Source: Candidatus Hermodarchaeota archaeon
GTDB taxonomy: Archaea; Asgardarchaeota; Heimdallarchaeia; Hodarchaeales; Hodarchaeaceae
Assembly: GCA_048886185.1 (NCBI GenBank)
Contig: JBHLKY010000011.1
Location: 90,001-122,000 of the forward strand
DNA: 32,000 nucleotides
Direction of reading: 5' to 3'
Shown here: positions 15,354 to 22,532 of the stretch, piece by piece
Layout of the letters: each line of letters opens with the position of its first letter
Position numbering within the stretch: the stretch's first letter is position 1
Notes under the pieces: generated by a model
Told to the model about the DNA's origin: nothing
The model's input: the letters and a program-made list of their open reading frames with translations, nothing else
Database searches by the model: none
Translations under genes and position numbers: made by a program

Positions 15354-15444
15354 GTAACATTTAAAATTGTTGATTAGAACATCTTTTCTAGTACCTTTTT
15401 AAAACAATAAAACTAAAATTCTTATAAAAAGGAAACATTCTACT

Positions 15445-16182
15445 ATGGGATCTGAGGCTGAAAGCCCTATTATTGGTATCATTATAAGTAGCTTTGCTGA
15501 TGCAGGTCCACAAGTGATCTATAATTCAACAAAAGAATATATTTCTGAAGATCATGCATTAAATCTCTCTATCCGGATCATGACTGTTATTGGGGAAGAA
15601 ATCAGCCATGATCTTTATGGTCCTTTACCTGTTCCCTCAAATGATGAGCTTCTTTGCCTAGCATACGTTTTTCGCGTTGAATCGACTTATACTATTGATC
15701 CTCGGTTGAAAGAACGTCCAAGTGTCATTAGTATTATATTTAGAAGAGCATTTAAACGAGAAATTTCTCGTGCACAGGGAATCATCTCTTCCTATCTTTC
15801 CCAAATAACAGCTAAGAACTTCAAGAAAGAAGAAGATCTGATATTCGAGAAAATGGAAGATATTCATAAACGTTTATCAGCCCTTATTGCAACAAATCCA
15901 GTTGTAATCTATATTGTTCAAGATGATCACATTCGAGAACATACAGGGAGCCTTGATGTCCCAACAGATGCGTTTGTTATTGCAGATATGCAGCAAAATG
16001 TCTTTTATATAATATACGAACCATACTTGTCACCATTGCGAAAACGGCAAGTTGTGATCCTTGTTGACGGATTAAATGAGAAAACATACAGAAGACGATT
16101 CAATAAACAGATTATTGACTCTGAAGAAGAAGCTGCACGACTTTTAAATTTCTATGGATTGAAACACCCGAAGCAATTTTGA
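15445..16182 (+). CDS. Hypothetical protein: N-terminal longin/uDENN-like domain plus C-terminal gelsolin-like domain
   Basis: Residues ~8-150 fit longin b-b-a-b-b-b-a-a (SF.D.GP, GPLPVP, DPRL). Residues ~152-242 fit a gelsolin repeat pattern. Fold calls by eye. Confidence 0.55.
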   Translation: MGSEAESPIIGIIISSFADAGPQVIYNSTKEYISEDHALNLSIRIMTVIGEEISHDLYGPLPVPSNDELLCLAYVFRVESTYTIDPRLKERPSVISIIFRRAFKREISRAQGIISSYLSQITAKNFKKEEDLIFEKMEDIHKRLSALIATNPVVIYIVQDDHIREHTGSLDVPTDAFVIADMQQNVFYIIYEPYLSPLRKRQVVILVDGLNEKTYRRRFNKQIIDSEEEAARLLNFYGLKHPKQF

Positions 16183-16198: not shown

Positions 16199-16591
16199 AT
16201 GAAACTAGATAGTGCTTATGGAATCGAACTAGATAGCCTTAAAGATCTAATAAGGTTGATTTCAAGTTCTAGCCCTGATCGTCCTTCAATTATTTTCAAG
16301 TGGGATTCAGAAAACAGTACACAGGTTTATTATGGATCTTTTGCTATCTTCCCGGGATATTATGATTATAAAGCATTACCTGTTCTGTTTTTTATAGTAC
16401 GTGATTCCTCGATTGAAGAGGAGAACCAATCACTAGTCCGTTACGATCTACAAGCTAGAGACAACCAGATGTCATTCTTAACTCACATTCAAGATAAAGA
16501 CCTTGATCAAGTTCATACGGGTCTTGTGCGTTTTATCCCTATTGTAAAGTTAAAAAAAGCTCCCAAGATCTTTACTGACTTGATATTTTAG
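16199..16591 (+). CDS. Hypothetical archaeal protein (130 aa)
   Basis: SD GGGTGA, 16 nt after the upstream stop. Patterned sequence SLKDLIRL..YY...LPVLFF..FIPIVKL resembles small conserved TACK-type hypothetical proteins. Confidence 0.7.
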   Translation: MKLDSAYGIELDSLKDLIRLISSSSPDRPSIIFKWDSENSTQVYYGSFAIFPGYYDYKALPVLFFIVRDSSIEEENQSLVRYDLQARDNQMSFLTHIQDKDLDQVHTGLVRFIPIVKLKKAPKIFTDLIF

Positions 16592-16602: not shown

Positions 16603-17388
16603 GTGCTTAAAGAAGGAGATACTGTTCGGATAATTGAATTATCACAGCATAATCCCAAATCTTGGATTATAAACCTCGTTAAAGATGATGAACTCTCAAC
16701 ACACCTTGGGAAAATACCTCATAATAATTGTATTGGTAAAAAATATGGAGATTTTGTCAAAGTATTGAAAGGAAAAGTTATCCTTTCAAGAGCTTGTCCC
16801 CGTGATTATTTACGACATTTTCGACTCAAAACACAAATTCTTTATGAAGATGATTGTGCTATCGCCTGTAGTTTAGCTGGCCTTGCATCTGGAATGAAAG
16901 TTGGGGAAGCTGGAACTGGATCAGGAGCTCTAACGACTTTTCTAGCCCATAATGTCCACCCAAATGGGCATGTGTTTTCATTTGACATAAAAGCAGACCA
17001 CTTAGCTAATGCTCAAAAAAATTTAGCTCAGACAAGTTTATTAAAATATATTACTTTTAAACTTCAAGATATCCGTTCTCCGCTAGATTTAAGGGACTTA
17101 GATGCCTTCTTCTTGGATTTTCCGACCCCTTATGAAGCTATTGATAATATTGCTCCTGTTCTAAAAGGAAGTGGACATCTAATCTGTTTTGTACCAAACT
17201 GGGGGCAAGTTGAATCAACTGTTGCCGAAATACGTAAGAATCCTTTTTTTGTCCTTCTAGAAACATTTGAGATAACAAGACGAAATTTCTTTGTAAACCC
17301 AGATAAACATATAATGCGCCCAGTTTTCCGTGATCTTGTGTATTCGGGGATACTTATCCATGCTATTCGGGTTTACTCTAGTAAATGA
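16603..17388 (+). CDS. trmI: tRNA (adenine57/58-N1)-methyltransferase, TrmI/GCD14 family
   Basis: STHLGKIPH...IGKKYG, R.KTQILY..D, EAGTGSGALT, LDFPTP, FVPNWGQV, MRP. GTG start after SD GAGGG. Confidence 0.88.
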   Translation: MLKEGDTVRIIELSQHNPKSWIINLVKDDELSTHLGKIPHNNCIGKKYGDFVKVLKGKVILSRACPRDYLRHFRLKTQILYEDDCAIACSLAGLASGMKVGEAGTGSGALTTFLAHNVHPNGHVFSFDIKADHLANAQKNLAQTSLLKYITFKLQDIRSPLDLRDLDAFFLDFPTPYEAIDNIAPVLKGSGHLICFVPNWGQVESTVAEIRKNPFFVLLETFEITRRNFFVNPDKHIMRPVFRDLVYSGILIHAIRVYSSK

Positions 17389-17397
17389 GATGAAGGC

Positions 17398-18297
17398 ATG
17401 ATAAAAATTCCTAGAACAGTATACGAAAAATTCTTACGTTTTTCTTTAGAAAATGCAAACCCATTAGACTCAAGAAATTGGAAAGAAAGCATAGGATTAA
17501 TCCTGGGACGGATCTCAGAACATGAAATATTAATAACAGACATTGTACCTATCGGGTCAGGAACAGCTGTTTTTGTTGATATTACAGACTATGAGAGAGT
17601 GTTCTCATTAATTTCAGTTGACAGAATTCAGGAAGGAGAAGTCATTGTTGGGTGGGCACATACTCATCCAGGACTTGGTCTATTTTTATCAGGTATAGAT
17701 ATCCGTACACAACAGATGTATCAACAAATGCATCCAAAAGCTTTTGCTCTTGTAATGGATCATACAAAAATAACTAATGAATTTTCTGGATTTAATATCT
17801 ATCGTCTTAAAGATTATGGAGCTCATCCCAGAACTGTTGAATATTATTTTGATGAGTCATTCGATTTCCTAACGACAAGAGAAAATCTTACTTCGGAATT
17901 ATATCTAGTTCCAGAAGTTCCTATTATCATCTCTGAATCTGAAGTCTCTTGGAAAGGTATTAGAATAAAGATCAGTGGTGATAAACAAATTCCAGTAAAT
18001 CAGCCATTTCAAGTAAAGATCTCACTTTTTTTACCCTCTAGTCAGTTCATTCACATAAAGTATCAGTTAAAGACTCATAAAATAATGGAAAATCCTTTCT
18101 TGGAAAAGTTAATTGATAGAAGAGCCATTTATCATGAAATGATATCTACAGGCCCATTGAGTACCTTTACTTTTCGTTCAAAAGAGATAGGAACAGCCTA
18201 TTTGCGAATTGAGAATCTAACCCTATTAAATTACCAGCAAAAACAACAAGAAATGCCTGATATGTGTTTTTATACTCAAATACGGGAAAACTATTAA
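17398..18297 (+). CDS. JAB1/MPN+ (JAMM) metallo-isopeptidase, Rpn11/CSN5-like, with a C-terminal beta-sandwich
   Basis: ESIGLILG and the intact motif WAHTHPGLGLFLSGID (H-x-H-x7-S-x2-D, 17653-17700), then QQMYQQMHPKAFALVMD. The last ~120 aa are beta-rich (QIPVNQPFQVKISL). Confidence 0.85.
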   Translation: MIKIPRTVYEKFLRFSLENANPLDSRNWKESIGLILGRISEHEILITDIVPIGSGTAVFVDITDYERVFSLISVDRIQEGEVIVGWAHTHPGLGLFLSGIDIRTQQMYQQMHPKAFALVMDHTKITNEFSGFNIYRLKDYGAHPRTVEYYFDESFDFLTTRENLTSELYLVPEVPIIISESEVSWKGIRIKISGDKQIPVNQPFQVKISLFLPSSQFIHIKYQLKTHKIMENPFLEKLIDRRAIYHEMISTGPLSTFTFRSKEIGTAYLRIENLTLLNYQQKQQEMPDMCFYTQIRENY

Positions 18298-18311: not shown

Positions 18312-19049
18312 TTATGATATTTGTTTGTATCTACGATCCCCATATTTCCCGAAGAGAATTAAAGCAATGAAAATAATCAAGAACCCAAAGAATAGATAAA
18401 CTAATATATAAGGAGGTGTAGGGTAGCTCCTTACTAATTCAAATGTTACATTTCTATAATAGTAAGCGATTTGTTCTCTTTCATCTCCTTGATATATGTG
18501 ATATTTAACACGGAAGACAAATTTGTATATCCCGTAAGTGACTAATTCTAAAGCAGGAACAGTCACAACCTCAGACTTCGATGAGTTTGGTTGAAGTACA
18601 AAGTCAATTATATTATACTTGGTATTTTCTGGGTCATAATATAATGAAAGAACTATTGTACGGTTGAGTATGTCATTCTCTCCAGAAATAACAGTGTAGA
18701 TGTCTACGGCAAACTCGTGGATAGCTAGTCTTATAGAATCTCCAATAGCAGTGGAATAACTTGCATTTATCCTTAAACTTGTCCCATTCAACAATTGAGG
18801 TAGCGGATTTTCTTGAAATTCAGGACTCGGTGCCTCTGAAATTAGTTCCTCTAAAGATACAAATTTATTTTGCACTTTCGCTTCGATATTCACCAGATCA
18901 ATCACCAACCTCCCTCCATTAGTATTAGGTTTAGTAGTTGACGCTTTAACAGCAATTGGGGCACCAGGGTGATTTAATCCACAAGAAATGACAATTATCA
19001 ATAACAAACTAAGAGAGAAAGCTTTTGATTTTGCAAATAATTTTATCAT
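18312..19049 (-). CDS. Type I membrane protein: signal peptide, Ig-like domain (TRAP-alpha-like), C-terminal TM helix
   Basis: Signal FSLSLLLIIVISC. Beta-rich ectodomain ending YKFVFRVKY..YYRNVTFELV. TM YILVYLFFGFLIIFIALILF, basic tail KYGDRRYKQIS. ATG 19049 follows SD-like AGGTTGA. Confidence 0.55.
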   Translation of the reverse strand: MIKLFAKSKAFSLSLLLIIVISCGLNHPGAPIAVKASTTKPNTNGGRLVIDLVNIEAKVQNKFVSLEELISEAPSPEFQENPLPQLLNGTSLRINASYSTAIGDSIRLAIHEFAVDIYTVISGENDILNRTIVLSLYYDPENTKYNIIDFVLQPNSSKSEVVTVPALELVTYGIYKFVFRVKYHIYQGDEREQIAYYYRNVTFELVRSYPTPPYILVYLFFGFLIIFIALILFGKYGDRRYKQIS

Positions 19050-19289
19050 TCGTTTTTTCAACCTTAAATAATCTTACTAAACACCCTGATTTTTCAGTTG
19101 AGCATTTGAACTTTTATTTCTTTTTGGAATATAAGTATTAAAGCTGATTGGATCCGTTCTCGCTATTTAATGCTTTCCACTCTATTAAAGTCCATACTCT
19201 CCAATGATTCAAATACATCAAAACAACTTAGAACATATCCTCTAACAGCTGAAGTTTTAAGATAGTTAAAAATTTATTTAATCCTAATT

Positions 19290-20290: not shown

Positions 20291-21319
20291 TCAATCGAGT
20301 TGAATGATTGGATAATCTTGTTGCACCAATTCTTCTACAATTGTTTGAATTTTAATTTGTGCTTCTTTTACCTCTTCTAGCTTAAAGAATTTACCTAACT
20401 CTTTCTCAACAAAATGTTCTGGCCCTTTCTTACCATCTTCTGATAAGATGAGTAAAATTTCCTTTTCGATGATACCACGAGAGAATTTTGCTTTTATCTG
20501 ATTAAAGATAATCTCATGAGCTAATAAGATTTCCAATTGTCGTTTATCAATTCGATTTATTACTTCTTCCGTAAGAACTAATATAGAGAAAATCTCTTTA
20601 ACATGATTAACAGAGTTTAAAGTGAAGATAGGCAAGTAGATTGGTTCAAAGCGGCTTTCCAAACTGGTCTGAAAAAGAAAAGGATCGACAGTAATTCTAT
20701 AATTACTTACGATCTGAGAATATTCCTGAAGATGCGAATGGATGTTTGATAAGGCACTTTTAGCTTTTCGATATTCTACCAATTGCCTCATTCGCTCCAA
20801 TTTTACTTTCTCGTTAATTTTTGTTGCAGGAATTATTTGAAGCCCCATTCTAACTTTCATTCTTAATTGTACTTCAATTTTTTCAGTGAAATCCTCAAAG
20901 GGTATGATTTCTCTCTTCTTATTACGAATAGGGTGAATTCGTTTTATAGCTTCAAATGCTTGAATTTCTGCTTCGAATATTGATTTTCCATTACAAAAAA
21001 TCTCCTTTGTTAAAGCAGCAAAATATTCCATACCTGTTTGCAGCGCAATCGAATCTAATGATTGGAATATAGGTATAGAAAAAGCAATTAGAAGGAAATC
21101 TTTTCCGTGTTGGGGGATAATATGAAAATAAAAAGGACTGATTTTTCTAGTCTCTCTTTGTATCAGGCCATTCACTCCAAAGAATCGTACTTGATCAATT
21201 AAATCAATTAACTCTTCATATTGAATAGCTGCCCTCTCGAACTCCATCACCATCCACTCTTCTATTGCTAGACGAGACTGAAACACTTGACCCTGCGGGA
21301 CACTTTTAGGAGAATTCAT
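20291..21319 (-). CDS. Hypothetical protein with a degenerate M48-like zincin motif (HEIIF)
   Basis: 342-aa ORF. ILVLTEEVINRIDKRQLEILLAHEIIF matches the M48 active-site helix context but lacks the second His. Confidence 0.6.
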   Translation of the reverse strand: MNSPKSVPQGQVFQSRLAIEEWMVMEFERAAIQYEELIDLIDQVRFFGVNGLIQRETRKISPFYFHIIPQHGKDFLLIAFSIPIFQSLDSIALQTGMEYFAALTKEIFCNGKSIFEAEIQAFEAIKRIHPIRNKKREIIPFEDFTEKIEVQLRMKVRMGLQIIPATKINEKVKLERMRQLVEYRKAKSALSNIHSHLQEYSQIVSNYRITVDPFLFQTSLESRFEPIYLPIFTLNSVNHVKEIFSILVLTEEVINRIDKRQLEILLAHEIIFNQIKAKFSRGIIEKEILLILSEDGKKGPEHFVEKELGKFFKLEEVKEAQIKIQTIVEELVQQDYPIIQLD

Positions 21320-21386: not shown

Positions 21387-22532
21387 TTAATACCTTTTAC
21401 TTGCATGCCGATAAGCGATGCTAAACAGGAATAGGAAAATACCAAAAGCCATAATCATTGCTGTAGATCGGCTAATGGTCTCCAATTCCCCAGAAGCAAA
21501 GTTAACGATTTGGAAAATAACAAGAGTTAGCCATCCTATAATACTAGTATCTTCTGTGGTCGTTAATCCTTTCCAATACCTCACAATTAGCATTAAAACT
21601 CCTAATATCACAGCACCAATATGAAATATTTGAAGAAAAGCTTCTGTTGGAAAGACATCTGCTGGAACAACTAAATAAATAAATTCTAAAAATAAGAAAA
21701 ATGCAGCAGAAACAAGAGTTATGAGGGGACCAGGGATTTTAACAGTATGATCAACTTGATGAGCACCTTCATAGATTAAATACAAAATCCCTCCTATCGT
21801 TGCAGAATCGGCTAGAATTAATGCTGACGTATAAATAACATCAATTTGGGTTTGCCACATTTCAATCATTTGTAAGAAAAATCCAATAATCCCAGATTGT
21901 TCACCAAACCAATCATATCCAAAATAGAATCCAATAACTACAAGTAATGGTAAGGGTAAATACAAGAGAGTTAACAATAAGGTTTTCCTTTGTCTAGAAA
22001 CCACTTTTCCTTCATCACGCCATTTAAATAGATATACAGCAATAAAATAACCACCAAACAACGAAATAAAAGGAGTTATTATAGGAAATAGGAAGATAAT
22101 GCCTATAATAAAATTGAATCCGTAAAATGCCTTTATAGTTGTTGGTAATCGCCAAATTTCGCGTCCAAAGGATTCATACGCATCACCAATTTGATAACGA
22201 CGCCCATAAGTCCAAAAGAGAAAGGGCACAGCCATTATCATCGGACCAACACCATAAATTATAATATCAGATAAAATACGTAAATCTCCAACCAAAAACC
22301 AAATAACTCCATCCACAAAGGCAAAAGACAGTAAATAAAAGTATATTGGAATTAAAATAAACTGTAAAAGCACTATAAAACGTCCATAATGAATATAGGT
22401 TTCATAATCACTCAATAAAATCTCTGCTCCTAGTACTTGTCTATTTTGCATAAGGGAATGCATCATCCTTTTTAAAAACATAACTCTTGAGTCGCTTAAG
22501 AATAGAAAATTAGGGTTATTTTTAAGAGTCAA
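21387..22532 (-). CDS. Polytopic membrane protein of unknown function (~10 TM helices)
   Basis: Many 18-24-aa hydrophobic segments with short basic loops. Start may be TTG 22532 or a downstream ATG. Confidence 0.8.
   Translation of the reverse strand: MTLKNNPNFLFLSDSRVMFLKRMMHSLMQNRQVLGAEILLSDYETYIHYGRFIVLLQFILIPIYFYLLSFAFVDGVIWFLVGDLRILSDIIIYGVGPMIMAVPFLFWTYGRRYQIGDAYESFGREIWRLPTTIKAFYGFNFIIGIIFLFPIITPFISLFGGYFIAVYLFKWRDEGKVVSRQRKTLLLTLLYLPLPLLVVIGFYFGYDWFGEQSGIIGFFLQMIEMWQTQIDVIYTSALILADSATIGGILYLIYEGAHQVDHTVKIPGPLITLVSAAFFLFLEFIYLVVPADVFPTEAFLQIFHIGAVILGVLMLIVRYWKGLTTTEDTSIIGWLTLVIFQIVNFASGELETISRSTAMIMAFGIFLFLFSIAYRHASKRY

Follow-up and report, generated by a model that had tools for sequence, protein, structure and literature searches.

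A reading frame of 245 residues in a Hodarchaeales genome, P0001, encodes a soluble protein that joins an N-terminal longin domain to a C-terminal gelsolin domain, and both halves are conserved. This two-domain architecture is secure. With some reserve, we favour the reading of P0001 as a two-domain regulator of the longin-GAP type, acting on a Rag/Arf-like small GTPase encoded elsewhere. The DNA analyzed (GenBank GCA_048886185.1, contig JBHLKY010000011.1, positions 90,001-122,000, forward strand) is a stretch of 32,000 nt with a low GC content (about 0.35), referred to here as the window, and the features of P0001 within it are the following:

15445 to 16182, plus strand: P0001, the longin-gelsolin gene, an open reading frame from ATG to TGA (245 aa)
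15466 to 15894, plus strand: GP-motif (GAP-type) longin domain, residues 8-150, from VIA-align, Foldseek and Atlas matches
15505 to 15510, plus strand: the GP motif G21-P22, with which strand beta2 begins in the model (codons checked)
15697 to 15705, plus strand: D85-P-R87, in the beta4-beta5 loop, with R87 as candidate arginine finger
15898 to 16158, plus strand: divergent ProGel-like gelsolin domain, residues 152-238, from VIA-align and profile hmmsearch

The reading frame is as the initial annotation of this DNA had described it. P0001 is a genuine gene and not a chance frame, since its homologs (about 245 aa, 56-87% identical) form 46 clusters and 51 columns of the ortholog alignment are invariant. 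All of these homologs come from Hodarchaeales/Heimdall-type MAGs, under the names Hodarchaeales, Heimdallarchaeota or Promethearchaeota, and the majority residue reaches a mean per-column conservation of 0.79 over residues 8-150 and of 0.71 over residues 152-238. Of 21 genomes sampled from the same genus-level group, 19 carry a strict ortholog. Three other families within the class have full-length relatives at 27-35% identity, and the P0001 query found no match at E <=1e-20 in two further families. Searches of Pfam, NCBIfam and PDB sequences with the single protein returned noise only, and the assignments below rest on structure comparison and on family profiles.

An AlphaFold2 model built from a 31-sequence alignment (pLDDT 82.4, pTM 0.69) has the order beta-beta-alpha-beta-beta-beta-alpha-alpha over residues 9-150 and beta4-alpha-beta-alpha over residues 153-236, thereby reproducing the secondary-structure elements and the domain boundaries that had been read from the sequence in the initial annotation. 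That annotation had also proposed that each domain be compared separately with known folds. The comparison, by Foldseek and by VIA-align (a structural search of the model, all-against-representatives), upheld both of its fold assignments, with best Z scores of 13.2 for the longin and 10.8 for the gelsolin half, to which the profile searches that rank ProGel first can be added.

For the longin half (residues 4-155), the best VIA-align match is the Lokiarchaeota Roadblock-Longin protein, chain 8yqg_B (Z 13.2, 140 residues), followed by C9orf72-SMCR8 (11.6), FLCN (11.3), Lst4 (11.2) and NPRL2 (10.2), so that 8yqg and the GAP longins span Z 10.2-13.2 across 130-140 residues. SNARE, adaptor, TRAPP, Mon1-Ccz1, DENND1A and roadblock chains score Z 7-9.4, DENND1A reaching 7.5 with the longin part alone aligned. 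Foldseek gives NPRL2 at E 1.7e-5 for this half, ESM Atlas matches fall in NPRL2, C9orf72 and SMCR8 clusters, and the two resources agree on these three proteins and on archaeal Arf-fused proteins. According to PMC12290439 (Traffic 2025), a GP motif at the junction of a loop and strand 2, beside the arginine finger, is a feature that only the GAP longins SMCR8, C9orf72, FLCN and NPRL2 have; the longins of FNIP2, NPRL3, adaptin, TRAPP and DENND are reported there to lack it, and one class of Heimdall-type longins to carry both the GP motif and the arginine finger. In P0001, strand 2 of the model opens with GP and R87 falls in the beta4-beta5 loop; its longin is therefore placed among the “GP-motif” Asgard longins.

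The F-x-x-x-GP and D-x-R motifs named in the initial annotation are thus present, as F17-x-D19-x-G21-P22 and D85-P-R87, and they are conserved. G21 and P22 are invariant in 31 orthologs and in 39 diverse GP-longins, while D85 and R87 are invariant in the orthologs and at least 90% conserved across the 39 family members, in which G59 is also invariant and P60 and P62 are at least 90% conserved. R87 would be the putative equivalent of FLCN R164, NPRL2 R78 and SMCR8 R147. The description of the domain as “uDENN/folliculin-type” holds in its folliculin part and fails in its uDENN part: the combination of GP and arginine belongs to the GAP longins, which score Z 10-13, whereas DENND proteins are reported to lack GP (PMC12290439) and DENND1A scores 7.5. 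A DENN protein was likewise considered for P0001 as a whole and rejected, as the chain ends after one gelsolin domain and has no cDENN or dDENN.

At the level of sequence, these relationships are distant. The Pfam models Folliculin (PF11704) and NPR2 (PF06218) do not match P0001 at E up to 10, and Folliculin matches one of the 39 GP-longin family members (E 0.15). A longin profile (A3) run against PDB sequences places the Lokiarchaeota longin 8yqg first at a non-significant E of 0.13, and NPRL2, FLCN and SMCR8 are absent from the matches listed for it; in the profile alignment 8yqg, the closest solved longin, has no arginine aligned to R87. The PAS/GAF-fused “NPRL2-like longins” that Liu et al. 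described and the longin of P0001 are members of one family. The partners of the 39 family members include gelsolin-like domains, TPR-like regions and PAS/GAF, or are missing altogether in single-domain proteins. Proteins P0092, P0100 and P0108 from other genomes are PAS-longin and PAS-longin-GAF-GAF fusions within the GP-longin family, and fit the description by Liu et al. of an NPRL2-like longin fused to signalling domains.

Residues 152-238 form one gelsolin domain, a divergent one whose nearest counterpart is the Asgard ProGel type. Thorarchaeota ProGel is the best VIA-align match (Z 10.8, rmsd 2.6 A, 85 of 88 residues), ahead of adseverin (9.8), gelsolin (9.6), villin (9.1) and the Sec23 gelsolin module (8.2), and some 20 chains of gelsolin, adseverin, fragmin, villin and Asgard 2DGel score between 8.3 and 9.8. 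These matches agree with the gelsolin/cofilin fold, in which a mixed sheet lies between a long and a short helix. This assignment does not depend on the model alone, because two profiles, built from 21 divergent full-length relatives and 36 C-terminal domains (A2 and A5) and run against 177,635 PDB sequences, rank ProGel first over the whole domain (E 2.1e-4 and 6.8e-4), with villin next at E 0.03-0.06. Aligned by hhalign with the ProGel-like protein of the same genome, the gelsolin-domain profile finds the right register with weak scores (E 0.028, probability 1.8%), and Pfam Gelsolin (PF00626) does not match P0001. The W-x-G signature, which in gelsolin domains follows the central strand and which the initial annotation had reported as missing, is indeed lost, P0001 having VFYIIYEP where ProGel has IYLWRG in the profile alignment.

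The case for a GTPase partner comes from the relatives of P0001 in its own genome. HMM searches of all open reading frames in the 4.84-Mb assembly recovered seven GP-longin genes, three of which encode a gelsolin-like C-terminal domain: P0001 on contig C11, and paralogs on contigs C28 and C30. The C28 paralog (L017:1453-2487; 344 aa, hhalign E 4.7e-13), which carries an extra C-terminal region, converges with the gene for a 301-aa Gtr1_RagA GTPase (C28:6842-7747), only 25 nt apart. The C30 paralog (264 aa, hhalign E 3e-5) has the same two domains as P0001 and stands in a co-directional run of genes for a 334-aa GTPase (C30:10318-11322), a weakly Gtr1-like protein of 318 aa, the paralog itself and a 309-aa Gtr1_RagA GTPase (C30:7592-8521; E 2.9e-34), with gaps of 10-20 nt (L018:122-2837; C30:7592-11322, minus strand). 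Among C28-type relatives, a Gtr1_RagA gene is adjacent or one gene off, P0074 repeating the longin/GTPase pairing and P0088 nearly so. In total, four of the seven GP-longin genes have a small-GTPase ORF within 2 kb, there being 67 such ORFs in the 4.84 Mb; these neighbourhood counts are not independent, since all GTPase-linked genomes sampled are relatives. The relatives of about 250 aa in Wukong-/Loki-type genomes have no GTPase neighbours.

Three further observations on these genes can be recorded. The C-terminal region of the C28 paralog, of about 90 aa, is winged-helix-like. About 12 of the 67 small-GTPase-like ORFs, which were collected by iterated search, are 285-334 aa long and combine a GTPase with an extra domain. 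A 763-aa protein with a C-terminal GP-longin (C14:22214-24505, minus strand) lies 33 nt from a small-GTPase ORF of 214 aa (C14:21537-22181, plus strand).

GP-longins are also tied to gelsolins, and in two ways: by fusion, as in P0001, and by neighbourhood. On contig C22, a GP-longin gene of 312 aa (C22:64948-65886) is followed after 115 nt by the gene for a canonical two-domain gelsolin (Pfam E 5e-23), the pair occupying L019:1186-2124 and L019:2239-3288. The two are neighbours at 16 of the 17 places, spread over 15 of 16 genomes of the genus, down to 53% identity. The C22 longin protein consists of an N-terminal region of about 100 aa, the GP-longin and a coiled coil, and the gelsolin downstream of it has a long Pro-rich tail. 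The two-domain longin-gelsolin family itself extends to Wukong-, Loki- and Odin-labelled MAGs, where it is annotated throughout as “hypothetical protein”. In a tree of 65 longin domains, the gelsolin label is clustered, with 11 changes as against 21.9 when shuffled; starred branches force at least three changes of that label, so that the fusion may or may not have a single origin, and the labelling may have overlooked divergent C-terminal domains. P0001 orthologs and a relative at 42% identity form a supported clade of their own in the longin tree, apart from the clades of C28 type and C30 type.

We propose, as the most likely function of P0001, that it regulates a small GTPase of the Rag/Arf-like kind whose gene lies elsewhere in the genome, with R87 inserted as an arginine finger that would speed up GTP hydrolysis. 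The protein is possibly dimeric, as other longin GAPs act in pairs, and the gelsolin-like domain would be a second module, docking the regulator on actin or binding another partner. In this proposal we infer the GAP activity, the target GTPase, the dimerisation and any binding to actin. An adaptor between GTPase signalling and the actin or coat machinery, the role put forward in the initial annotation, is plausible, and the position of the sister paralogs in Rag-GTPase operons supports the GTPase side of it. Against the regulator reading count the failure of Pfam Folliculin, NPR2 and Gelsolin to match P0001, the lost W-x-G, the missing arginine at the aligned position of 8yqg, the missing GTPase neighbours of the relatives of about 250 aa, and the immediate neighbours of the gene, which are an orphan, TrmI and JAB, with no GTPase, actin or gelsolin nearby. 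A further step would be that the gelsolin-like domain binds Asgard actin, in which case the family would represent a pre-eukaryotic coupling between Rag/Arf GTPase inactivation and actin, and the neighbouring GP-longin and gelsolin genes its unfused form; we offer this step tentatively and consider it rather unlikely.

Two other roles for the same architecture must be weighed. P0001 might be mainly an actin regulator, a two-headed bundler or capper in which the longin only dimerises or localises the protein and no GTPase takes part. The match to the gelsolin fold, with ProGel as first PDB sequence hit, would agree with this, as would the presence in the genome of one Asgard actin (C2:134554-135660) and three canonical gelsolins, the dimer named in the entry title of the Lokiarchaeota longin structure, and the finding that ProGel, which has no calcium sites, still sits on actin (PMC7444086). 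However, P0001 has lost the W-x-G and escapes Pfam Gelsolin, the binding of ProGel to actin is itself weak (Kd ~337 uM; PMC7444086), and the sister paralogs lie in Rag-GTPase operons, not beside actin, so that we judge a role centred on actin to be unlikely.

We give the same small chance to the idea that P0001 does bind a small GTPase and is not a GAP, serving instead as a platform, GEF or effector in the manner of TRAPP, Mon1-Ccz1 or Ragulator-type longin/roadblock proteins, with the gelsolin-like domain contacting the GTPase or its roadblock. There is a precedent for such a contact in Sec23, the gelsolin module of which touches Sar1. The arginine finger of Sec23 may also lie in that module, an idea to which no weight is given here. 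The Sec23 module matches P0001 at Z 8.2, Mon1-Ccz1, TRAPP and roadblock chains match the longin half at Z 7-9, the Rag operon context of the paralogs is compatible with either reading, and most proteins with longin and roadblock domains are GEFs or platforms (PMC12290439). What speaks for a GAP is the pair of GP and conserved arginine, which PMC12290439 reports for GAP longins only and not for those of TRAPP, adaptin or DENND, together with the structural scores of the GAP longins (Z 10-13), which lie clearly above those of the GEF-type longins (Z 7-9).

The surroundings of P0001 differ from those of its paralogs. A gap of 91 nt, rich in A/T, separates the gene from the upstream G1P-dehydrogenase gene and, judged by its sequence, probably holds the promoter of an operon with these elements:

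15396 to 15444, plus strand: A/T-rich intergenic stretch with TATA-like runs TTTTTAAAA and TTATAAAA, upstream of the P0001 ATG; probable promoter
16199 to 16591, plus strand: P0002, an orphan of 130 aa, 16 nt after the P0001 stop and preceded by a Shine-Dalgarno-like GGTGA site
16603 to 17388, plus strand: tRNA methyltransferase of TrmI/GCD14 type, after an 11-nt gap (Pfam GCD14, E 1.1e-29)
17398 to 18297, plus strand: JAB/MPN metalloprotease, after a 9-nt gap (Pfam JAB, E 1.2e-12), the last gene of the operon

The window was searched for GTPase, actin and gelsolin genes, and none was found. Its housekeeping genes include those for aCPSF1/FttA, a G1P-dehydrogenase-type Fe-ADH, TrmI, A-ATPase subunit E, FEN1 and glycine cleavage P. 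The JAB/MPN protein is extended at its C-terminus by about 180 residues that match no Pfam model, and three ORFs downstream, all on the minus strand, are Pfam-less: 18312-19061 (249 aa), which has hydrophobic segments at both its N- and C-terminal ends, 20291-21319 (342 aa) and 21387-22532 (381 aa). P0002, which always directly follows P0001 in Hodarchaeales, was considered as a second longin or roadblock subunit and rejected: structural matches to its model (pLDDT 82) go no higher than Z 5.0 (ribosomal eL38), Foldseek gives nothing at E <=0.001, and the model resembles well only one Atlas cluster, which is unnamed and drawn mostly from Bathyarchaeota (TM 0.69 over 109 residues).

A role set by the operon itself, in which P0001 and P0002 together would regulate or target the JAB/MPN or TrmI protein as a complex and the two folds would be interaction modules only, is very unlikely. 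It would fit the short spacing of the four genes (16, 11 and 9 nt, with Shine-Dalgarno-like sites), a P0001-P0002-TrmI-JAB order kept across Hodarchaeales down to 59% identity, with adjacent locus tags in many MAGs, and an order of G1PDH, P0001-like gene and TrmI that survives at 42% identity. But within one taxonomic order, genes may keep their arrangement by descent alone, the locus at 42% identity has no P0002, more distant members of the family stand beside other genes, and no pathway on record joins the activities of a longin-gelsolin protein, P0002, TrmI and JAB.

Eukaryotic cells couple their small-GTPase switches to actin and membranes, and the origin of this wiring is an open question. 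If P0001 is a regulator of the kind favoured here, small-GTPase switching and the actin skeleton may be connected through it in these close relatives of eukaryotes, a candidate link that can be tested. Longin and gelsolin are each known as eukaryote-like modules of the Asgard archaea; here they are fused in one polypeptide, and the fusion is spread over several Asgard lineages, with paralogs in Rag-GTPase operons and related longins beside canonical gelsolins. The initial annotation had noted no described protein with this pairing, and full-text literature searches, which covered PMC12290439 (a study that includes 15 Asgard longins) by its main text, found no paper describing it; in the texts of the longin papers so covered, gelsolin is not mentioned. 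Peculiar to the C11 copy is that it is the best conserved of the three longin-gelsolin genes in the genome, has no GTPase neighbour and stands in a different operon. Small, soluble and easily expressed, with clear point mutants in R87 and G21/P22, P0001 could be used to ask if the GAP activity of longins is older than the eukaryotes and if it was linked to actin.

Four known systems invite comparison. As in Sec23/Sec24, a gelsolin-fold module (Z 8.2) would be part of a regulator of a small GTPase, there Sar1; P0001, however, lacks the zinc finger, trunk, beta-barrel and helical domains, its match falls below those of true gelsolins, and its sequence profiles point to ProGel and villin, not to Sec23. 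The Lokiarchaeota Roadblock-Longin protein (PDB 8yqg) is the best structural match of the N-terminal half, but there the longin is partnered by an N-terminal roadblock, as against a C-terminal gelsolin in P0001, and the D-x-R loop is not kept in the profile alignment. With the Asgard mini-gelsolins, for which Akil et al. 2020 (PMC7444086) gave the architectures ProGel, 1DGelX and 2DGel only, P0001 shares a single domain of the gelsolin/cofilin type, of about 88 residues, ProGel being the best match; in P0001 this domain sits behind a longin, has lost the W-x-G, escapes Pfam Gelsolin and is a putative actin binder. A parallel to the favoured reading is offered by FLCN, NPRL2 and SMCR8, the catalytic longin subunits of eukaryotic GAP complexes, and by the GP-motif longins of Heimdall type in PMC12290439. 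No second longin subunit was found for P0001, and its GAP activity is putative; in place of the DENN domains of FLCN and SMCR8, or of the C-terminal domain of NPRL2 type, it has the gelsolin domain. Shared are the longin fold (Z 10-12), GP where strand 2 begins and a conserved arginine in a loop of that domain, and the sister paralogs of P0001 are encoded with GTPases of the Rag type, which are the clients of FLCN and NPRL2.
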